A stretch of 64,000 nucleotides of DNA. Origin: a virus. Position numbers and translations under genes: made by a program. The number at the start of each line of letters is the position of its first letter. The first letter of the stretch is position 1. Below the pieces are notes generated by a model. The model saw only the letters and a list, made by a program, of their open reading frames with translations, was not told the origin of the DNA and searched no databases. Location: positions 4,476 through 68,475 of IMG/VR virus record IMGVR_UViG_3300012347_000106; one strand, 5' to 3'. Positions 3,221 to 60,927 of this stretch are shown here, in pieces.

Positions 3221-4770
3221 TGACCTTCCATCATGTCGGCAATCGCCAAATCCATCAACCCGCCGGAGGCGTACCCGCGAGCGACACCGCCCTTGGCCAT
3301 CAGCTTGCTTGCGCCATAGGCTGCAGTGCCGAGACCCGCCACCTGAGATGCCGCACTGGGTGCGGCCGAGTACATAGTCTGTGTTGAGCCAGACGGCGTG
3401 CCGCGCAGCAGGTTGGATTGGAACTCCAGTTGCTGGTATGGGAACTTCTGCTGGTTCTGGAAGTCTTCGTACTGCTGGCTAAGGACGTTTTGCACCTGCT
3501 GCTGCTGCTGTGTGCCGTACGCATTCTGCAGCTTGTTGACGTCCATGGCCTGACCAAACTGCTGGCCACCAAGTGCACCCAACTGACCTGCGCCTGTGAG
3601 CGCGGTCTGCAAGCCCTGAAGGCCGAGACCTGCACCGTATTGGCGAGACTGCTCTTCGAGCTGCTGCGCGGCCTGACCGTACTGCGCTCCGGCTTGTGCA
3701 CCCGTCATTGCCTGCTGTGCAGCAAACTGGTTCGCTGCCTCTTGGGCTTGCTGGGCCGACATGCCGTACTGGGCCTGCAACTGAGCGGCGCTCAAGCCTT
3801 GACCTGCACCAAACTGACGAGACTGCTCCGCCAACTGTTGGGCGTTCAAGCCGTACTGCTGGTTTGCCAAGGCTGCCTGAAGGCCCGTCTGCGCGCCGAG
3901 CTGTTGAGTGCTCAGTTTGGAAGCCAAATTCTGCTGACCCACAGTCAGTCCAGCCTGTTGGTTGGCTTGCTGCGCCTGCAGTCGAGCGGCCTGCTCTTGG
4001 TTGAATTGCTGCTGAGCCTGCTGGTATGCGGCCTGTGAGCCTGTGGCTTGAATGTCACCAAGCTGCGTGCCGAGGTTGCGCTGGCGCTCCGCTTCGACGA
4101 TGGCCTGACGAGAGCCGCCGAACGCGCCTTGGCCTACCGCTTGTGCTTGGTTCTGATTGCGCTGAATTTCCGAGGCGCGCGTTGCTTCGCGCTGCTGCAT
4201 TCCAACAACGCTCTGCATGTACGGCGACATGTAGGCTTCTGCCGCGTTTGGCTGGGCAAACGACTGCGTGCGAACCTGCTGCGCCGGGCCCATGCCGTAC
4301 TGGTTGAGCTGCGGTGCCTGCACTTGCTGCGCGTTGAACTGCCCGGTTTCATATTGGCCCGGGGCTTGGAAGGGGTTCTGGAACTGCGATGGGTTGTACT
4401 GACCCGGAGCTTGGAACTGGTTCTGGAACTGCCCGGCATCATAACCCGTGTTGAGTGCGCGATCGGACGCTGTTGCTGCTGTTGCCGCACCCAAACCTGT
4501 TGCCGCCGAAGGCTGCATTGACCCAGCGCCTTGGAAGGCTTGCTGCTGCAGTGGCGTGAACTGCGCTGTGCGCTCACCTTGGTAGGCTTGGTACGGCGAG
4601 TTGGACAGTGCAGAGCCTTTGCCCAGCACTTCTTGCGCGTAGGGTTTGGCCCAGTCTGGCAGGTCTTGGGTCTGCGTTGTGCTAGATGGACCTCCGCCAC
4701 CGCCGCCATCCATTGGGTAGAGACGCCGGTTGTCGGCTGAGTAGCCGCTGAATTTGTTGCCGATAATCAT
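3217..4770 (-). CDS. Gln-rich low-complexity virion protein (putative internal/ejection protein)
   Basis: The ORF track gives 3217..4884. I moved the start to the in-frame ATG at 4770, which overlaps the GNAT gene stop (ATGA coupling) rather than giving a 118-nt overlap. The protein has long Q/A/G-rich repeats. Confidence 0.5.
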   Translation of the reverse strand: MIIGNKFSGYSADNRRLYPMDGGGGGGPSSTTQTQDLPDWAKPYAQEVLGKGSALSNSPYQAYQGERTAQFTPLQQQAFQGAGSMQPSAATGLGAATAATASDRALNTGYDAGQFQNQFQAPGQYNPSQFQNPFQAPGQYETGQFNAQQVQAPQLNQYGMGPAQQVRTQSFAQPNAAEAYMSPYMQSVVGMQQREATRASEIQRNQNQAQAVGQGAFGGSRQAIVEAERQRNLGTQLGDIQATGSQAAYQQAQQQFNQEQAARLQAQQANQQAGLTVGQQNLASKLSTQQLGAQTGLQAALANQQYGLNAQQLAEQSRQFGAGQGLSAAQLQAQYGMSAQQAQEAANQFAAQQAMTGAQAGAQYGQAAQQLEEQSRQYGAGLGLQGLQTALTGAGQLGALGGQQFGQAMDVNKLQNAYGTQQQQQVQNVLSQQYEDFQNQQKFPYQQLEFQSNLLRGTPSGSTQTMYSAAPSAASQVAGLGTAAYGASKLMAKGGVARGYASGGLMDLAIADMMEGQ

Positions 4771-5176: not shown

Positions 5177-6574
5177 TTACACAGGCAGGAGTTTTTCGGC
5201 GCGGCTGTTGACGGCTACGCGGTCTTTGCCGACAGTCTTGGAGCGAGCCTTTTGCACGCGGTCCATCATGGCGTACAGCTTGCGTGCGCCAGCTTCGGTC
5301 GAGCCATTGCCCAACTCAGACACAATGCGCGCAGGCACCACGAACTCACCGTCCGCCAGACGGGCGGGGCGCTTTTCACCGATGGTTGCAGGGATGTCGT
5401 CAGACACACCGTCGCCGGGGCCGCGCAGCAAACGTCCGCCGTCCGAGTAGTCGCCCAGATGGCTTTGGCCACCTTGGGCCAGAGATGCAATACCGCCTTG
5501 GGCGTATCGCATGCCGCCGTTGGCCATCACGGTCTCAGCTTGGTTGCGGTCAGACATAGCCTCGACTGGGCCGGTGTCCATGAGACCACCGCCCGCCGCT
5601 GTGCGGGTGTAGATGGGGTTGAAGTAGTTGCGCTGCCCTGTGGCTGCGCCGGTATAGCCTGCTTGAGGGTCTGCAACGCGGCCGGGATCGTAGCTGTACA
5701 TCCAAGGCTTCTCGGATGGTTTTTGCGCGGCCTTCTCGGGTTCTTGCATCAACAGCGGGAGACCTGCAGCGTAGCCGTACTTCAGCAAACCCATGCCACC
5801 GCCAACACCGGTAGCTTCCACGCCCTTAGATGCGGCGTTACCCATAAAGGCTTCGCGTCCGGCTTCGGTTCCCAAGTTCTTGAAACCTTGGCCGAGCTGT
5901 GAAAACTTGTCGGCCATTGGGGTTGGGGCCGGTGTTGTTGTTGGGACTGCCGCCGCCGCATTGATGGGAGAGACTGGCGGAGCCGAAAACGCAGAAGGCT
6001 GAATGCCTTGAGCAGCCATGTCTGCTTGAAAACCTGCACCCAATTGACCGGCAGTTTGTGCGCCCATGGACGCGCCAGTAGCCCCCACCGTCGGGGTTAT
6101 GCCCTGAGCAGCCATAGAGGCCTCAAAACCTGTACCCAGTTGTGCGGCTGTCTGAGGGCCCATAGACCCCACCCCCGCAGCGCCAGCCTCTGCCGCACCA
6201 ACACCTGCAGCGCCAGCACTCATCAAACCGCCAGCCAAACCCGCACCGCCAAATGCGCCCATGCCCGCCATCAAGCCCTTGCTTAAGCTACCTGTGGCAA
6301 CGCCGTAACCAGCGCCAGTAATACCGGCAGCCATCAACGGGGTCAACGCACCGCCCGACGCAACGGACAAACCAGCGCCAATTACCATGGGCAGGATGCT
6401 CGACAGGAAGCCAGCTTCTGGCAGGCCGGTGTCTGGGTTGGTGGTCAGGGAGCCGCCATGTGCTTTGGCAAGCGCCTGCAGGCCAGCCACCTCTTGTGGG
6501 GCCATGTGGACGAGTTGAGTGTCGGGGCCACGGCCGCGAGAGGCCATGTGTTGTGCGGCAAGTTGTAGGCTCAT
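5177..6574 (-). CDS. Gly/Ala-rich virion protein (putative internal/ejection or tail-associated protein)
   Basis: 465 aa with long G/A-rich segments and a structured C-terminal domain. Part of the late operon. Confidence 0.55.
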   Translation of the reverse strand: MSLQLAAQHMASRGRGPDTQLVHMAPQEVAGLQALAKAHGGSLTTNPDTGLPEAGFLSSILPMVIGAGLSVASGGALTPLMAAGITGAGYGVATGSLSKGLMAGMGAFGGAGLAGGLMSAGAAGVGAAEAGAAGVGSMGPQTAAQLGTGFEASMAAQGITPTVGATGASMGAQTAGQLGAGFQADMAAQGIQPSAFSAPPVSPINAAAAVPTTTPAPTPMADKFSQLGQGFKNLGTEAGREAFMGNAASKGVEATGVGGGMGLLKYGYAAGLPLLMQEPEKAAQKPSEKPWMYSYDPGRVADPQAGYTGAATGQRNYFNPIYTRTAAGGGLMDTGPVEAMSDRNQAETVMANGGMRYAQGGIASLAQGGQSHLGDYSDGGRLLRGPGDGVSDDIPATIGEKRPARLADGEFVVPARIVSELGNGSTEAGARKLYAMMDRVQKARSKTVGKDRVAVNSRAEKLLPV

Positions 6575-19794: not shown

Positions 19795-20211
19795 TTAGGA
19801 GATACGGATCAGCGCACTGGTCGCTGTGTTGGCGGGCATCTGCACCGTGAATGTTGTCGTGGCGGTTTTATCCGACCCGAAGTCCAACACCGCAATAGCC
19901 TTGTTGCTCTTGCTGGCATTGTAAATGAGGGCACCACGAGCAGTGAATGCTGCGGGGTCCCATGACGGATCGGCAAAGTCCACGTAAGCAGTGGTGTCAG
20001 CAGTCAGAACGGTAACGCCTGTCAGCGTCTTGCCGCCGGCCGTGTAACCTGTACCCGAGGTCTCACCCGCTGTGGTGTACACCGTGGTGGCTGCGCCGAG
20101 ATCGGCCGTGGCCAAGAACAACGCCATCTTGATGGTGTCCGTCTCAAGGTCGTGCACTCCAAGCAGGATATCCTGCTTGAAGCTCGTGGTGAGGGTTTGG
20201 TCAAATGCCAT
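19795..20211 (-). CDS. structural protein, hypothetical
   Basis: 138-aa ORF in the late operon. Confidence 0.5.
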   Translation of the reverse strand: MAFDQTLTTSFKQDILLGVHDLETDTIKMALFLATADLGAATTVYTTAGETSGTGYTAGGKTLTGVTVLTADTTAYVDFADPSWDPAAFTARGALIYNASKSNKAIAVLDFGSDKTATTTFTVQMPANTATSALIRIS

Positions 20212-30300: not shown

Positions 30301-31818
30301 TTAGTAATACGCGGCCCGGCGGGGCTGCTGGAAAGCTTGATTATCCTCGTGGTCTGTGCTTAGACGCAACAGGCCACCTTTGCGCACGCGCATCAAGGCC
30401 AGAGTCATCGTGTCCACCTCGTCGTCGTGCTCGCCGGCCGGGAACGCCAAAATCTCCTCGACGGTCTGCGCAGCCCACGAAGTCTCGGGGAACCAGACGT
30501 GGCCGGAGGCGAACATGTCGGCTACGGCGTTGAGCCGGGCGATCTTGTCCTGACCCTTACCCGGGCTGAAGTCCTGCACAAATACGCCAGAGCGGCGCAT
30601 CTCGTCGATCAGCGGCTGACCGCTGGCTTTCGCTTCCACAATCACGCTGTCCGGCTCCCAGTCGGCGTACTGCTCGTGGGCCATGGCTTTGAGCTCGGGG
30701 AACTCATACTTGCCCTTGACCTTGTTGAGCAGAATGACGTTCTGGGTGTTGTCCTCCTCGTTATGCCACACACCCCACGTATGGCACACAGAAAAGTCCG
30801 AGCGCTGCTTGGTGGTGAGCGCCGTATCGAACGCCTGCACGGTGAAGTCAATCTTGGGCGGCATATCGCCCTTCCACCATTTAATCCATTCCCGCTTGAT
30901 GATCGCAGCCTCGGCAGCTGTTGGGTTCTGCTGGTACTGGGCATACCACTGCCACATGATGTGGTGCATCGACGCCCGAGTCTGCTGCAGGCTTTCTAGT
31001 GTCCACTGCTCTGGCCAGATGGATTTCTCGTTCTCGGTGCCCTCGTTCAGGATGGCCGGGAACTCAAACGCCTCGTAGTTGTCTCCGCCCTCGTTCATGG
31101 CAGAGTCTTTGAGCAGCCGGCCGATCAGGTCCCGCTGGTGCCACCGGGTGTGGAGTACGCAGATTTTCCCGTCTGGCATCAGACGTGTTCGCAGACCGGC
31201 ACTGAACCATTCGTAGGCGTTGTCCAGCGAGTTGGTGTTACCCGCCTTGATGTCCTGCTCGGACAACGGATCGTCAGCAATGATGAGGTGGGCACCTCGG
31301 CCGGCCAGCGCGCCGCCCACACCGATCGCAAAGTATTCACCGCCCGCAGTGGTGTTCCACTGGGCAGCCGCCTTGGCGTCACTTGCAATCTTGGTGTTCG
31401 GGAAAATTCGGGCGTATTCCGGAGAGTTAATCAGGTTCCGCACCTTGCGTGCCATGACAATCGCCAAGTCAGCAGTGTGGGACGCCACGATCACCTTGTG
31501 GTCCGGGTGCCGGCCGAGGTACCAAGCGGGGTAGTAGATGGAGATCATCTGGGACTTGCCCATACGCGGCGCCATGCTCACGGCGATCCGGTTTTTGATG
31601 TTCTCCTCCACATCCATCAGGAGGGAGCCCAGCCTTTTGAGGTGGGCACCGAATTTGTAGCTCTTGTCGACCGCCGCAATGAACGCAAGGAAGTCATCCT
31701 GCGCCGCCTGCACAGATTTACGCTCTTCGAGCTCATCAAACATGGCCAGCAGCTCCGCCGCCTCGGCATGAGGCATGCTTTTCACCAATTTTTCGACGAT
31801 TGCGGGCGTGAGCTGCAT
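30301..31818 (-). CDS. terL: terminase large subunit
   Basis: 505 aa with an N-terminal ATPase region (Walker A-like) and a C-terminal nuclease-type acidic motifs (IIADDP, HEDNQ). Conserved TerL architecture, directly upstream of the portal. Confidence 0.85.
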   Translation of the reverse strand: MQLTPAIVEKLVKSMPHAEAAELLAMFDELEERKSVQAAQDDFLAFIAAVDKSYKFGAHLKRLGSLLMDVEENIKNRIAVSMAPRMGKSQMISIYYPAWYLGRHPDHKVIVASHTADLAIVMARKVRNLINSPEYARIFPNTKIASDAKAAAQWNTTAGGEYFAIGVGGALAGRGAHLIIADDPLSEQDIKAGNTNSLDNAYEWFSAGLRTRLMPDGKICVLHTRWHQRDLIGRLLKDSAMNEGGDNYEAFEFPAILNEGTENEKSIWPEQWTLESLQQTRASMHHIMWQWYAQYQQNPTAAEAAIIKREWIKWWKGDMPPKIDFTVQAFDTALTTKQRSDFSVCHTWGVWHNEEDNTQNVILLNKVKGKYEFPELKAMAHEQYADWEPDSVIVEAKASGQPLIDEMRRSGVFVQDFSPGKGQDKIARLNAVADMFASGHVWFPETSWAAQTVEEILAFPAGEHDDEVDTMTLALMRVRKGGLLRLSTDHEDNQAFQQPRRAAYY

Positions 31819-31830
31819 TTTTTGGGGTGT

Positions 31831-32439
31831 TTATTTGGCGTCTACGTCGTCAACGGAGATTTCTGGCATGGTTGGCCGGGCAGTTGGGGTCACTTCCCCC
31901 TCAATTACCTTGGTCAGGCGCTCGCGCAGCAGCTGTTCGAGCTCTTCAGTCGGCCGATGGCGCATCGTGATCTCGGTTTTGTCCGTAAACAGCCCCACGT
32001 CGGACACTTTGCCCAGCAATTCCAGCGATTTGAGCCGGATTCGTGGGTCGGCATTGGCAGTTTCTGCCAAAAGCTTGTTGGTTACGTATGTTCTGAGCTG
32101 CGCCGCGGACTTCACGACGGTCTTGTCGTACTCGTTGAGCAGAGATTGCAGGTAAACCACCACCGGTGGGGACGATAGGTCCTGATCCGAGGCCAGTTGC
32201 TGGCCTGAAAAGATGGCACGGGCCAAATCTTTGTCTTCTTCGGCAATCTGGGAGGGGTCTGGCAGCCCATCGGAGTCCACCAATGCAGACATGGCAGCAG
32301 CCACCCGGGCCTCAAGGGACTCGAATGTGGGTGAGAAGTCCGCAAGCGGGACGTCGTAGTCGATGGTTGTCTGGTATGCCATGGGAGGGAATCGCACTCC
32401 TGTGTGTTGGGCGGATTGTAGTGTAATTTTTTTAGCCAT
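31831..32439 (-). CDS. putative terminase small subunit / first late gene
   Basis: 202-aa ORF immediately upstream of TerL at the start of the late operon. No recognisable motif. Confidence 0.4.
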   Translation of the reverse strand: MAKKITLQSAQHTGVRFPPMAYQTTIDYDVPLADFSPTFESLEARVAAAMSALVDSDGLPDPSQIAEEDKDLARAIFSGQQLASDQDLSSPPVVVYLQSLLNEYDKTVVKSAAQLRTYVTNKLLAETANADPRIRLKSLELLGKVSDVGLFTDKTEITMRHRPTEELEQLLRERLTKVIEGEVTPTARPTMPEISVDDVDAK

Positions 32440-32479
32440 GCATTTTATTTTCGATGGGGGGCCTTTCCTGTATGAAGGG

Positions 32480-32505
32480 GGTGGGGGTCCCCCAATATCG
32501 GAATT
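32480..32505. promoter_or_regulatory. perfect 26-bp palindrome (CCCAATATCGG-AATT-CCGATATTGGG) in divergent promoter hub; candidate operator
   Basis: Exact reverse-complement symmetry around a GAATTC centre. It lies between the late-operon start (32439) and the early promoter (32668), just downstream of a TATATAAT element on the minus strand. Confidence 0.55.
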
Positions 32506-32520
32506 CCGATATTGGGTTTA
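32506..32520 (-). promoter_or_regulatory. candidate late promoter -10 region (TATATAAT)
   Basis: AT-rich TATATAAT about 70 nt upstream of the first late gene. No good -35. Confidence 0.3.
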
Positions 32521-32667
32521 ATTATATATAGGAGTGTGGGGAAGAGGTGGTGGCGGCTACGACACTCAGCGTAAGCGGACGCGAGGAGTCCCAGTTGCCA
32601 GTTGGACGCCCCGGGGTAGGGTGGGGTTTGGCCTCCAGACTTTTAAGGTTAGGAGTTTGGGTAAGCG

Positions 32668-32696
32668 TTGACAATACCTATATACCTATATACAAT
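32668..32696 (+). promoter_or_regulatory. early promoter P1, sigma70-like (TTGACA-17-TACAAT)
   Basis: Consensus -35 TTGACA, 17-nt spacer, -10 TACAAT, 50 nt upstream of the first early gene. Confidence 0.7.
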
Positions 32697-32745
32697 TGAT
32701 CCCATCGACGCAATACCGCTTCGATACATCCTAAAGGAAATCATC

Positions 32746-33276
32746 ATGTCAGTTATCAATGCATCCATCATCAACGCCGTCATCAAGTCTTTTGAGGGCG
32801 AAGCCAAAGCCATCGCCAAAGCTCGCACGGCTCAGGACAAAGCCATCCAGTCAGCACTCGATGCCATGTTTATCGCTTGCGACAAGCCAAAGGCTGAGTT
32901 TCTCAAAGGTAACGCCAAGACCAATCCAGCACGGGGCCAGATCAAAGGCATGTTCGACGCCATCGTCGAGGCCGGTTACATCAGCAAGTCGTCAGGCGCA
33001 TCGTATCAGTCAGCCTTCTGGATTGCCTTCGAGCAGGGCGTCGAGTTCAAGCGTGATCTGAACAACAAGAAAGACAAGACCGAAGGCGGCGAAGCCAAGA
33101 CAAGCGCCAAAGCATCGGGCGCAGTGCAAAGCACCAGCCGCACCGACTTGGACAAGACACTCAGCAAAGCAATGGCGCAGGCCCGCTTGCTTGGCTTGCT
33201 GGATTTTGCGGCTGACTTGGTTGACTTGTGCCAAGACCGCTTGGATGGTTTCGAGGAAACCGTGCTCAGCAAGTGA
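32746..33276 (+). CDS. early protein, hypothetical (helical, Lys/Ala-rich)
   Basis: The ORF track ORF starts at the TTG of the -35 element. The true start is ATG at 32746 with an AAAGGA SD. 176 aa. Confidence 0.55.
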   Translation: MSVINASIINAVIKSFEGEAKAIAKARTAQDKAIQSALDAMFIACDKPKAEFLKGNAKTNPARGQIKGMFDAIVEAGYISKSSGASYQSAFWIAFEQGVEFKRDLNNKKDKTEGGEAKTSAKASGAVQSTSRTDLDKTLSKAMAQARLLGLLDFAADLVDLCQDRLDGFEETVLSK

Positions 33277-33281
33277 TACCC

Positions 33282-33325
33282 AAGGGCGCAAGCCCTTGCC
33301 GCCCGGCTTCGGCCGGGCTTTTTTT
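33282..33325 (+). terminator. tandem-hairpin intrinsic terminator
   Basis: AAGGGCgcaaGCCCTT, then GCCCGGCttcgGCCGGGC, followed by TTTTTTT. Confidence 0.7.
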
Positions 33326-33475
33326 CGCCTGTACTTTTTGGAGCCCGAGTTTCCCCACGTCTGTGGGGAAACGTCATAGTAGTGCGACCGTGCGGGAGAG
33401 TGAGCGGGAGTACACGCAGCCGAGTGTGAGGGAGTGGCAGGCACCGGGCGACCGCAGCGCCGGGCCGCCGAAAAG

Positions 33476-33491
33476 TTTTAAGCTTAAAAGT
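33476..33491. repeat. palindromic early-region motif copy (variant TTTTAAGCTTAAAAG)
   Basis: Member of the CTTTTAAGGTTAAAAG family. Confidence 0.6.
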
Positions 33492-33613
33492 ATTGCCTTG
33501 TTGTTGTTGCGGAACAGACGTACAAAAAATCAGGGTGCGTTACAAAACCCCTGTATCAGAACTAAAGCAAAATAGCCCACGGAAAAACTGCAATGAAATC
33601 AACAACTTACAGC

Positions 33614-33630
33614 AGAGAGAGAGAGAGAGA
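33614..33630. repeat. (GA)8-9 dinucleotide microsatellite
   Basis: agagagagagagagaga inside the inverted-repeat-bounded element. Confidence 0.8.
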
Positions 33631-33715
33631 TTAGATATTTATTTGTTTATTGTTACTGATGTACAGGCTTTTAGGTATGAAAAGCTAGGAAAGGTCTTTG
33701 GCTCATTGGCAGAAG

Positions 33716-33730
33716 TTTTAATGTTAAAAG
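33716..33730. repeat. palindromic early-region motif copy (variant TTTTAATGTTAAAAG)
   Basis: Inside the inverted-repeat-bounded element. Confidence 0.6.
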
Positions 33731-33962
33731 TTTGGCCCGGTCAAGGGGTCTCTGGCAGGCTCCACAACCCCTGTATCCACGTCACCGTGAAGATAATAGC
33801 ACCCCCGTTCTCCTCAACCCCCTGTGTTTGTGGGGCTTCCACGCAATCACTTTACATTCCTTGTATCGTAGCAACTTTCCCCATTTGTGTACATCTGTTC
33901 CGCAACAACAACCAGCGAACCCGTGATATACTGGGCACCCCAACAACCAGTCAAGGACTACT

Positions 33963-34763
33963 ATGACCGACCCCATGACCTCCATCACCCTCGAAATCCC
34001 CACCGCCGTGGCCCACAAAATCTCCGAGACTGCCCCCGGCACCCTTGCAGAGACGGCACTCATCGCCCTGCGACTCTACCACGGCTTGGGACTCGACGCC
34101 CGCACCACACTCACCGAGCTGGCCACACACCACAGCCTCACCCCTGCCAAAACCCTGCGACTTGCCATTGAGCAACTGAAGGCGGACACCACACGCTTGC
34201 AGCTTGGTACGGGCACGGCTGGCCGACCCATTGTGAACGGCGACCGTGATGCAGATATATATGCCAAGACCCGGACAGGCATCACCCATGCCACCATCGC
34301 CGCTGCGTACGGCATCTCCCTCGTGCGCGTTGGGCAGATCGTGGCCAAGCAACGTGCCATAAATAAGGACACTACCAAACGGGCGACCCGCACCGCCAAT
34401 GACCCGTGGAATATCGGATTAGCTATGGACGCTGGCCTGAGCGCCGAGGCCGCTGCCGCCCGATACAACCTGACTGTGGACGAAGTGGCCGAACGATACG
34501 CCGCCTACCGCGCCAACTTGCCAGCCAACCCCAACATGCTCGACAAGATCAACGCCGGGCGCACCGCAGAGTCTTCGACTCAGGCAGCGTCTTCAACACA
34601 GGAAGTTTTAACCTTAAAAGAACCACCACGCAAACTGGCAGTCATCCCACCATCCATGAGGAACCCTGAACTGTTCGCAGAGGCCAAGCCGATCAAAATC
34701 CCTGACCCAGCCACAGTGGACATGTCCATGTTTGACCCAAACAACCCAGACTTCGCCATCTAA
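33963..34763 (+). CDS. early protein with HTH-like segment, putative DNA-binding regulator
   Basis: 266 aa with an AAGGA SD. The helix-turn-helix-like stretch ATIAAAYGISLVRVGQIVAKQ and a second AARYNLTVDEVAERYAAY segment. Confidence 0.5.
   Translation: MTDPMTSITLEIPTAVAHKISETAPGTLAETALIALRLYHGLGLDARTTLTELATHHSLTPAKTLRLAIEQLKADTTRLQLGTGTAGRPIVNGDRDADIYAKTRTGITHATIAAAYGISLVRVGQIVAKQRAINKDTTKRATRTANDPWNIGLAMDAGLSAEAAAARYNLTVDEVAERYAAYRANLPANPNMLDKINAGRTAESSTQAASSTQEVLTLKEPPRKLAVIPPSMRNPELFAEAKPIKIPDPATVDMSMFDPNNPDFAI
34606..34620. repeat. palindromic early-region motif copy (reverse orientation TTTTAACCTTAAAAG), inside a CDS
   Basis: Inside the 3' part of gene 33963..34763. Confidence 0.6.
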
Positions 34764-35074: not shown

Positions 35075-35103
35075 TGACATATATAGGTATTTGTGATAGA
35101 ATA
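35075..35103 (+). promoter_or_regulatory. early promoter P2, sigma70-like (TTGACA-17-TAGAAT)
   Basis: Same architecture and TATA-rich spacer as P1. Confidence 0.65.
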
Positions 35104-59774: not shown

Positions 59775-60686
59775 ATGAGCAACATGACACTTTTCAAATC
59801 CGGTTCCGTTATCCCCGACTACCTGCGTGAGGCATCTGACGCAACCACCAAAGACATCGCTGGCTCGTCCGGCGGCAAGAGCATCTCCATCAAGGGCGGC
59901 GTATGGCGCATGGTGGTTGGTGGTGAGGAAGTCGCAAAGAACGAAGAGCGCTCCATGAACATCGTGGTCATCTCTGCCGGTAAGGGTGTGTCCCGCACGT
60001 TCTATGCGGACAAATACGAAGAAGGCAAAGACATCAAGCCAGCATGCTGGTCGGCCGAAGGCGCTGTGCCCAACGAAGAAGTGCCGAACCCACAAGCCAA
60101 GACCTGCGCTACCTGCCCTCAGAACATCGAAGGCTCCGGTGATGGTAAGTCCCGCGCCTGCCGTTACAGCAAGCGTCTGGCTGTGGCTTTGGAGAACGAT
60201 ATTGCTGGCAACATCTACCGCCTGTCGGTGCCCGCCAAGTCCTACTTCGGCAAGGCTGACGGTGACAAGATGCCTCTGCAAGCCTACGGCAAGTTCCTGT
60301 CTGGCCACGGTATCCCAATCACTGGCGTTGTGACCGAAGCCCGCTTCGACACAGCAGAAGCCGTGCCTGTCCTGAAGTTCCGCGCTGTGCGCCCACTGGA
60401 GCGTTCCGAATGGGAAGCTGCCAAGGCCCAGAGCTTGACCGAAGACGCCATGCAAGCCGTTGAGTTCAAGATGGTGCCGAGCAAGACGGACAGCAAGCAA
60501 GCCGCGCTGCCCGCAGCGTTCAAGGATGCAGACATTCCTGCCAAGGAAGAAGCACCCAAGGCGCAAGCTGAAGAAGTGGCTGAGCCAGTCAAGCGCCCCG
60601 CCAAGGCCAAGGCTGATGCAGCTCCCGTAACCAACTCAAAGGTCGCTGACATTTTGAGCGACTGGGCGACTGACGACGATGCGTGA
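59775..60686 (+). CDS. putative single-stranded DNA-binding protein (zinc-ribbon, acidic C-terminal tail)
   Basis: Four-Cys cluster (C..C..C..C) in the N-terminal half and an acidic C-terminus ADILSDWATDDDA as in phage/bacterial SSB tails. Sits among replication genes. Confidence 0.45.
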   Translation: MSNMTLFKSGSVIPDYLREASDATTKDIAGSSGGKSISIKGGVWRMVVGGEEVAKNEERSMNIVVISAGKGVSRTFYADKYEEGKDIKPACWSAEGAVPNEEVPNPQAKTCATCPQNIEGSGDGKSRACRYSKRLAVALENDIAGNIYRLSVPAKSYFGKADGDKMPLQAYGKFLSGHGIPITGVVTEARFDTAEAVPVLKFRAVRPLERSEWEAAKAQSLTEDAMQAVEFKMVPSKTDSKQAALPAAFKDADIPAKEEAPKAQAEEVAEPVKRPAKAKADAAPVTNSKVADILSDWATDDDA

Positions 60687-60927
60687 TAGAACCCGAGGGT
60701 ATGACTCCCTCTTCATCCGGAAGGTAGAAGAAGCCGACCAGAAGCCGGCTGTTCTGCAGCTGGCCGATGTGTGCATCGAAAAGAACATCCCCGTCACGGA
60801 AGTGGCGGCTTTGTTCGGGGTGACACGCGCGACTATCTACAACTGGATGACGGGGCTGACAACACCAAACCCTCGGTATCTGGCCATGATCCCAAAGATC
60901 ACCACACGCTTGTCCAAGCGTAAGTGA
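60679..60927 (+). CDS. small HTH DNA-binding protein
   Basis: VTEVAALFGVTRATIYNWMTG helix-turn-helix. Confidence 0.5.
   Translation: MRDRTRGYDSLFIRKVEEADQKPAVLQLADVCIEKNIPVTEVAALFGVTRATIYNWMTGLTTPNPRYLAMIPKITTRLSKRK

Follow-up and report, generated by a model that had tools for sequence, protein, structure and literature searches.

Does the exact 26-bp palindrome lying between the late and early arms of an uncultured freshwater phage genome act as the operator of the early-to-late switch? The palindrome was found in a 64,000-nucleotide stretch of the IMG/VR virus record IMGVR_UViG_3300012347_000106 (positions 4,476 to 68,475 of that record; referred to here as the window), between the minus-strand structural arm (TerS-like protein, TerL, portal) and the plus-strand early arm. 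A preliminary description had offered two readings of it: an operator for the switch, or a transcribed hairpin at the 5′ end of the late mRNA. The operator was not supported by comparison with related loci, in which the palindrome proved to be a dispensable strain-level insert. The hairpin was retained as the preferred reading in a narrower form: where present, the palindrome is tentatively regarded as a strain-level accessory 5′ stem-loop of late transcripts, with a probability of roughly 0.4.

The palindrome, CCCAATATCGGAATTCCGATATTGGG, was located at 32491–32516 and consists of 13-bp arms meeting at the centre GAATTC; its exact symmetry had been described correctly, while the coordinates 32480–32505 given for it were 11 nt off. 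It is the longest inverted repeat of the 64-kb window, the runners-up having 10-bp arms. Arms of 13 bp were reached in none of 30 shuffles of the window (shuffle maximum 11), and the analytic expectation for a palindrome of such length is approximately 0.001 per window. A second perfect palindrome, CAAGCAGGATATCCTGCTTG (20 bp, centre GATATC), was observed in the late arm at 20160–20179.

On the minus strand, the palindrome lies 4 nt downstream of TATATAAT (32528–32521), itself part of CCTATATATAATTAA (32532–32518), which confirmed its reported position just downstream of a TATA element in the late sense. The adjoining mini-hairpin was also confirmed:

32483–32493, no strand assigned: mini-palindrome GGGGGTCCCCC, overlapping the 26-bp palindrome by 3 nt.

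The GGGGG half of this element was restricted to palindrome-bearing strains and the C-run forms the start of a conserved C-tract block; L177 and other relatives (loci of relatives are designated by L numbers) carry GACCCCACCCCC with no G-run ahead of it. The suggested search for further copies of the half-site yielded nothing beyond chance: no second copy of the 11-nt half-site was found in the window at 0–1 mismatch, and the count at two mismatches corresponded to chance. In fold prediction, the late-leader RNA containing the palindrome reached a minimum free energy of −32.7 kcal/mol (z −2.7) and was dominated by the palindrome stem of 11–13 bp, so that a stable hairpin is predicted on the transcribed strand. 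Folded as a DNA hairpin, the palindrome gave −11 kcal/mol (z −2.9).

Relatives were collected via the TerS-like protein of the first late gene (80 IMG/VR and 80 metagenome loci), and exact-protein look-ups added four near-identical contigs. Four independent assemblies were set against the window, three of which encode an identical 183-aa TerS-like protein. The fourth, L176, is a 958-nt contig without the TerS-like gene and is 100% identical to the window from 32382 through the whole intergenic region, palindrome included. Among the three with the identical protein, L179 carries the palindrome unchanged and L178 carries it with one transition (GATATCGGG). In L177, which shares about 91% DNA identity with the window over 5.2 kb, the palindrome is replaced by 12 unrelated bases, TCCCCTCCCGCA.

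The exact 26-mer had no match in IMG/VR viral contigs, metagenome contigs or GTDB species-representative genomes, and neither a half-site homologue nor an ancestral half-site was found in approximately 175 related loci (879 kb in total). The preliminary description had itself made the operator depend on conservation of the palindrome in relatives with the same gene organization. Across the three collections, the 175 loci and L177, the palindrome was not kept in such relatives, and the early-to-late operator was abandoned on this result. Mosaicism was evident around the intergenic region: L081 was the closest relative on the late side (98%) and only 78% identical on the early side, while L087 showed the reverse.

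The palindrome occupies a hypervariable slot between a TATA-rich box and the C-tract module. Across relatives, the slot ranged from about 3 to about 90 nt or held a whole HNH gene in late-gene orientation. In L087, L019, L005, L140 and others it consisted of 3–20 nt of unrelated sequence. L001 carried a different palindrome, TCGACGACAT-CA-ATGTCGTCGA, with 10-bp arms and the same end offset from the gene, and L003 carried AGAATTATTCT. Arrays of A6-C-GTACATGAC units (GTACATGA repeats), two direct and one inverted, were present in the slots of a patchy set of close and distant relatives (L002, L010, L082, L083, L085, L091; L034, L035, L124, L144, L154), and in some relatives the units changed symmetrically to TACACGT/ACGTGTA. 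These arrays look like binding-site arrays or plus-strand terminators. Other recurring short modules were also seen.

A complete HNH homing-endonuclease gene in late orientation, with its own A6-N5-TAyAAT-CC element and ribosome-binding site (RBS), filled the slot in L004, L016, L017, L020, L084, L092, L095, L098, L047, L049, L054, L056, L063 and others, which marks the slot as an insertion hot spot of mobile DNA. Of about 95 distinct relatives, 8 had a perfect inverted repeat of 7 bp or more in the slot, where shuffling predicts 0.5, and the repeats of these eight were mutually unrelated in sequence. Many metagenomic contigs start within the C-tract/slot region (L006, L014, L022, L023, L052, L057, L059, L062, L071). 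A genome terminus or cos site at the slot was rejected, because the contig ends were scattered within the C-tracts, as expected of assembly breaks, and no terminal repeat was found in the window. The breaks probably arose during assembly, from homopolymer runs and from slot variation between strains.

Unlike the slot, its surroundings were strongly conserved. Read in the late sense, the region opens with the start of the early gene, its leader and its promoter, all on the opposite strand; next come a ~110-nt block, the TATA-rich box, the variable slot, a C-tract/A-rich/TACAAT module, and the RBS with the ATG:

32534–32645, no strand assigned: conserved non-coding block of about 110 nt, lying between both divergent promoters and unique in the window.
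32518–32532, minus strand: TATA-rich box 'P1', CCTATATATAATTAA, conserved and at a fixed distance from the ~110-nt block.
32456–32487, minus strand: C-tract/dyad block, CCCCCACCCCCTTCATACAGGAAAGGCCCCCC on the minus strand, the downstream border of the variable slot.
32443–32451, minus strand: conserved A-rich element AAAATAAAA, part of the 32413–32451 module, which also holds an A-tract.
32413–32420, minus strand: TACAATCC, 'P2' (TACAAT at 32420–32415), a second late promoter-like element with no −35.
31831–32382, minus strand: first late gene (183 aa), termed TerS-like from its position alone, with a start conserved in relatives (MAYQTTID).

The ~110-nt block contains the invariant motifs CTCAGCGTAA, GGAGTCC and GGTGGGGTC, and was kept, with fixed spacing to the TATA-rich box, even where the TerS-like protein was only about 68–70% identical. 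Its GGAGTCC includes a GANTC site, and distant relatives have a flipped GGACTCC. A structured RNA was ruled out, since the RNAalifold energies of the two strands were only −0.5 and −1.8 kcal/mol, neither a consensus structure nor covariation was seen, and no Rfam match was obtained. The block is probably protein-binding DNA, serving for example in packaging or as an upstream activating sequence for the late genes.

The box varied as TATAnnTAAyT in close relatives and as CTATAcaaaaCTATAC in distant ones. It is a candidate −10 of an activator-dependent late promoter (without a −35) or a candidate shared operator. Its 15-mer, CCTATAyATAATTAA, reappeared within the spacers of the sigma-70-type early promoters (32676–32699, plus strand; 35077–35088), matching at 13 of 15 positions in the window (32685–32699) and at 15 of 15 in L177 (L177:2700–2730). 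If early and late genes share an operator, the box qualifies for that role better than the palindrome does.

The RBS region upstream of the late ATG was also conserved, and the HNH genes inserted in relatives are preceded by their A6-N5-TAyAAT-CC element, which is similar to P2. No further copies of the late promoter motifs were found in the 32-kb late arm. Late-type elements are thus confined to one intergenic region of the window, which, together with the strong conservation across relatives, supported the earlier view of this region as a divergent control hub.

On the early side, the predicted consensus promoter was confirmed (about 160 nt from the palindrome in the preliminary description, 152 nt by measurement), and it is followed by a hairpin:

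32668–32696, plus strand: early sigma-70-type promoter, TTGACA-17-TACAAT, 11/12 match, 152 nt from the end of the palindrome.
32704–32725, plus strand: early-leader 5′-terminal hairpin, ATCGACGC-AATACC-GCTTCGAT, starting 8 nt past the −10, approximately at the expected transcription start.

The promoter pattern TTGACA-16/17-TACAnT was found in 37 distinct relatives. Two tandem copies of ACCTATATA lie in the early promoter spacer and the element recurs in a second early promoter at 35077–35088; the window holds six matches against 1.7 expected, a number reached in 0 of 100 shuffles, and three promoters contain the element.

A hairpin with a 7–11-bp stem, beginning at about the seventh nucleotide after the −10, was predicted in all 37 of these relatives. 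In an alignment centred on the predicted loops, a procedure that favours pairing, 93% of cells paired and compensatory changes were seen at all 8 pairs. The covariation score was 0.967, compared with 0.27 for shuffled controls and at most 0.2 for slid controls. G·U cells (30) outnumbered A·C cells (8), pointing to an RNA of early sense. The loop is semi-conserved as AATTCC, and the hairpin is absent from Rfam. Its presence in 37 of 37 relatives, the covariation and the G·U bias together make 5′-terminal hairpins a trait of this phage family.

The late box and palindrome of the window could be aligned without gaps to the early −10 and hairpin of the same genome (CCTATATATAATTAAACCC... against CCTATATACAATTGATCCC...). 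Over the core, 27 of 36 positions agreed, and the loop centres were at most 1 nt apart (CGGAATTCCG against CGCAATACCG). From this in-register alignment it follows that the late slot of this lineage carries an apparent inverted copy of the early module composed of a −10 and a 5′ hairpin.

These observations led to the preferred reading. In it, a dispensable strain-level cassette separates two late-control modules of fixed spacing, the ~110-nt block and TATA-rich box on one side and the C-tract/A-rich/TACAAT/RBS elements on the other. We infer that transcription starts from the box and runs through the palindrome, which either stabilizes the mRNA or is bound by a factor. The palindrome begins 5 nt after TATAAT, and a late start about 7 nt past TATAAT, at approximately 32514–32513, would fall on its third or fourth base. 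The 32-kb late mRNA would then open with a 10–13-bp stem-loop and essentially no unpaired 5′ tail. This geometry is known to protect bacterial mRNAs from 5′-end-dependent decay, and the stem-loop would stabilize or tag the long late mRNA, a role presumed also for the early hairpin on the gp1 mRNA.

The palindrome has the AATTCC loop motif in common with the early hairpins. The slot is bordered by conserved elements and yet is variable in length or holds an HNH gene, which indicates that late-sense read-through of it is tolerated. In addition, dimeric helix-turn-helix (HTH) operators require neither the length nor the exactness of a palindrome that is perfect over 26 bp, centre and outer bases included.

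Several points weigh against this reading. The box has no −35, the corresponding position being occupied by CACCTC, and TATAnnTAAyT does not keep the −11A and −7T of one hexamer across relatives, so that it is not a clean sigma-70 −10; the late start itself is a modelled position. The second promoter-like TACAAT (32420–32415) lies downstream of the palindrome, and HNH cassettes carry an element of that type; if only this TACAAT fires, the palindrome falls outside the late mRNA. More than 80% of relatives, as well as the near-identical L177, are without a slot hairpin, and any benefit must therefore be non-essential. Finally, the transition in L178 produces an A·C in the late sense and a G·U in the plus sense, which slightly favours the other (plus) strand.

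The two proteins proposed earlier as binders of the palindrome were evaluated separately. The first is encoded in the early arm:

33963–34763, plus strand: early 266-aa protein with a Mor/C-like HTH at residues ~92–131, weak family matches.

Its weak matches comprised PHROG 836 'late transcriptional activator' (3.6e-4), Pfam Mor (0.0076), the Mu C protein in PDB (E 0.4) and sigma-70 region 4 in Pfam. The conserved block reads GRP..N..RDADIY...G.T...VAAEFGISLVRVGQIVA.QR, and it is the best-conserved part of the protein across relatives, palindrome-less ones included, which implies that its DNA target should be conserved as well. The alleles differed considerably: 266 aa in the window, 225 aa in L177 (761–1438; 43% identical) and 324 aa in L178 (165–1139; 44% identical). 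L178 keeps the palindrome despite its divergent allele, while L002 combines a 68%-identical allele with a GTACATGA slot, so that the protein does not co-vary with the palindrome. The 266-aa protein is thus a candidate late activator on the basis of its sequence and had to be dropped as a palindrome-specific binder. The gene was itself observed to be a mosaic hot spot, in which genomes otherwise 91–96% identical have different intervening parts through swapping, while they keep the N-terminus, the HTH and a C-terminal tail (PRKLAVIPPSMRNPELF...DPNNPDFAI). The second protein, an 82-aa HTH_3 (Cro/C1-type) protein at 60679–60927, had 15 homologues in IMG/VR, all on contigs ending short of the slot, and none was found there on the contigs of full-length relatives.

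An unlikely, though serious, alternative is that the palindrome has no selected function and is a neutral or near-neutral DNA product of cassette exchange, gene conversion or template switching between two inverted promoter-proximal modules; it would persist in a slot that accepts nearly any sequence. The finding that genomes sharing an identical TerS-like protein differ in whether they carry it, the extreme variability of the slot, selfish HNH genes included, and the mosaic recombination around the intergenic region (L081, L087) all fit such an origin, which the perfect symmetry suggests to be recent and for which the 34-nt inverted similarity to the early module offers a possible template. 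It fits less well with the enrichment of slot inverted repeats (8 against 0.5 by shuffles) and with the preservation of the palindrome, complete or almost complete, in four independent assemblies of different sample origin; DNA does not usually maintain long perfect palindromes stably unless they are tolerated or under selection, which was also counted against neutrality. A lineage-specific operator is quite unlikely. Its 13-bp half-sites would bind a dimeric protein private to the lineage, for example the 82-aa HTH protein (60679–60927), covering approximately +1 to +26 and blocking late transcription like the lac operator. The palindrome sits right behind a −10-like element, where repressors classically bind, the A6-C-GTACATGAC cassettes in relatives' slots resemble binding-site arrays with symmetric changes, and the patchy occurrence of the HTH_3 protein (15 IMG/VR matches, none from contigs of full-length relatives) would agree with a private regulator. 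However, the half-site is single in the window, phages with the same circuit exist without the palindrome, the Mor/C-like HTH is excluded as a specific binder by its conserved recognition helix and the lack of allele co-variation, and a 26-bp symmetry including the centre exceeds what an operator needs. HTH_3 contigs of 85–90% identity also share samples with relatives having empty or HNH slots (L162/L019, L164/L024, L168/L004), which is suggestive only.

In the plus-strand sense, TTTAATTATA comes after the hairpin, and the two might form an intrinsic terminator or insulator that keeps antisense transcripts of the late arm from running into the early promoter. A consensus scan scored the stem with TTTAATTATA as terminator-like on the plus strand only, no T-run being found after the stem on the late strand, and the GTACATGA cassettes of relatives likewise present hairpins followed by GTTTTTTG on the same strand. 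The T-richness, however, comes from the adjacent conserved AT-rich box, the U-tract is interrupted, and the A-tract of the GTACATGA cassettes belongs to the repeated unit even without a hairpin partner. The imperfections in L178 and L124 are G·U in the plus sense and A·C in the late sense, but two transitions amount to two coin flips of strand evidence. Neither a sigma-70-like plus-strand promoter within 32200–32490 nor a plus-strand unit upstream was found. Overall, this role is very unlikely. A long shot is that the slot is an exchange site for regulatory cassettes (palindromes, GTACATGA arrays, homing-endonuclease genes), which would rewire or privatize late control together with the swapped parts of the Mor/C-like gene 1.5 kb away. 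The palindrome would then be a private operator or an RNA tag, perhaps read by a factor that recognizes the AAUUCC loop of the early-leader hairpin. If true, this would amount to an immunity- or exclusion-like specificity system among co-circulating strains of lytic-type freshwater phages.

Several known systems offer partial parallels. 5′-terminal mRNA stem-loops protect against 5′-end-dependent decay, the leader of E. coli ompA being the paradigm. Both the early leader of the family and the late box of the window resemble it in placing a stem-loop at or within 1–2 nt of a predicted start ahead of a long operon. In contrast to the ompA type, the early hairpins keep an AATTCC loop that simple end-protection would not require, the late copy occurs in few strains, and the 5′ ends are predicted ones. 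The palindrome resembles lac-type and Cro/CI-type operators in being an inverted repeat placed shortly after a −10-like element, so that a dimer bound there would obstruct RNA polymerase; it differs from them in its single copy, its perfect 26-bp symmetry, its lack of conservation with the circuit and the lack of an identified cognate repressor. By analogy, a nut-like role of the early hairpin is conceivable, since it lies upstream of gp1 and of the terminator at 33301–33318 that precedes the Mor/C-like gene. As in lambda nut (boxB) and HK022 put, a covarying early-leader stem with a semi-conserved loop stands after the early promoter and before a terminator preceding a putative late activator gene. 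Unlike in those systems, no N-like protein or boxA was recognized, and the analogy is purely positional.

Mor/C-dependent promoters of phage Mu have a −10 without a −35 and a 16-bp imperfect dyad centred at −43.5, to which a Mor or C dimer binds (PMC2582627, PMC4390567). The window shares with these middle and late promoters a −10-like hexamer without a −35 in both late elements, an early Mor/C-like HTH gene and a conserved upstream sequence at fixed spacing. It differs from Mu in the size of the protein (266 aa versus ~130–140 aa), whose family scores are below threshold, and in the palindrome, which lies downstream of the box rather than at −43.5 and is not conserved. No convincing 16-bp dyad at −43.5 of the late elements was found by inspection.

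Leftward, the 183-aa protein is followed by TerL, the portal, and then the capsid and further open reading frames (ORFs) of structural size. The 183-aa product had no family match; as it is encoded upstream of TerL, it may be a small terminase subunit. Its start at 32382 is conserved, and the 183-aa form was chosen by gene callers on three independent contigs. The palindrome consequently lies 109 nt from the first late codon, and not about 40 nt as proposed earlier; the ATG at 32439 on which that figure was based is 52 nt away and not conserved in relatives.

At the TerS-like start, the conserved CAGGAGTGCGATTCCCTCCCATG (window 32380–32402, minus strand) places a Shine–Dalgarno-like GGAG opposite an anti-Shine–Dalgarno-like CUCC beside the AUG. 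In the L052/L057/L059 group, this GGAG/CUCC pairing is replaced by GGC...GCC, and the region may form a conserved hairpin. A second insertion hot spot was noted in the late leader between TACAAT and the RBS (~32403), with about 150 nt in L083 (380–530), L084 and L091 and about 90 nt at the same spot in L002 (~5920–6010). The ~150-nt insert, which lies in the 5′ untranslated region, was rejected as a riboswitch or structured RNA (no Rfam match, fold z −0.25). At the gathering score, Rfam 15 gave no match in the whole window or in four relatives; within 31500–33500 there was a single sub-threshold PhrS match, which covered the gp1 terminator.

Rightward, a 176-aa protein is followed by a strong terminator (33301–33318), the 266-aa weakly Mor/C-like HTH protein and the replication genes. 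The terminator is of canonical intrinsic type (GCCCGGCTTCGGCCGGGC plus T7, 33301–33325, plus strand) and stands directly 3′ of the first early gene. Between this terminator and the Mor/C-like gene, some 640 nt (33320–33960) contain no convincing gene, and the 157-aa ORF at 33493–33966 has an implausible composition. The products of 10 large early ORFs are a DNA polymerase, a helicase, a primase and an HNH protein. No phage RNA polymerase or sigma factor that could read the late box was found among them, and late transcription therefore presumably proceeds via the host polymerase and a phage factor. No tRNAs were found.

Megablast of 31800–33400 against 50,697 phage records revealed no close cultured relative. 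The best TerL identity was only about 40–45%, to HTVC023P-type pelagiphages and some cyanophages. In L001, the closest full-length IMG/VR relative, about 900 extra nt were present within terL (L001:7294–8199 versus window 31150), which may be an intron, intein or endonuclease insertion.

The palindrome itself is of minor importance: it is an accessory element in a phage promoter region, a hairpin or palindrome of a well-known kind, and the phage circuit works without it. Its examination eliminates an attractive but incorrect early-to-late operator candidate. The conserved elements are likelier to drive the switch: the ~110-nt block, the C-tract/A-rich/TACAAT module, the TATA-rich box that the late region has in common with the early promoter spacers, and the Mor/C-like activator. 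For this abundant group of uncultured freshwater phages without a close cultured relative, a family-wide, covariation-supported 5′ hairpin on early transcripts has been documented, together with a recombination hot spot comprising the cassette slot, the HNH insertions and the activator allele swaps.

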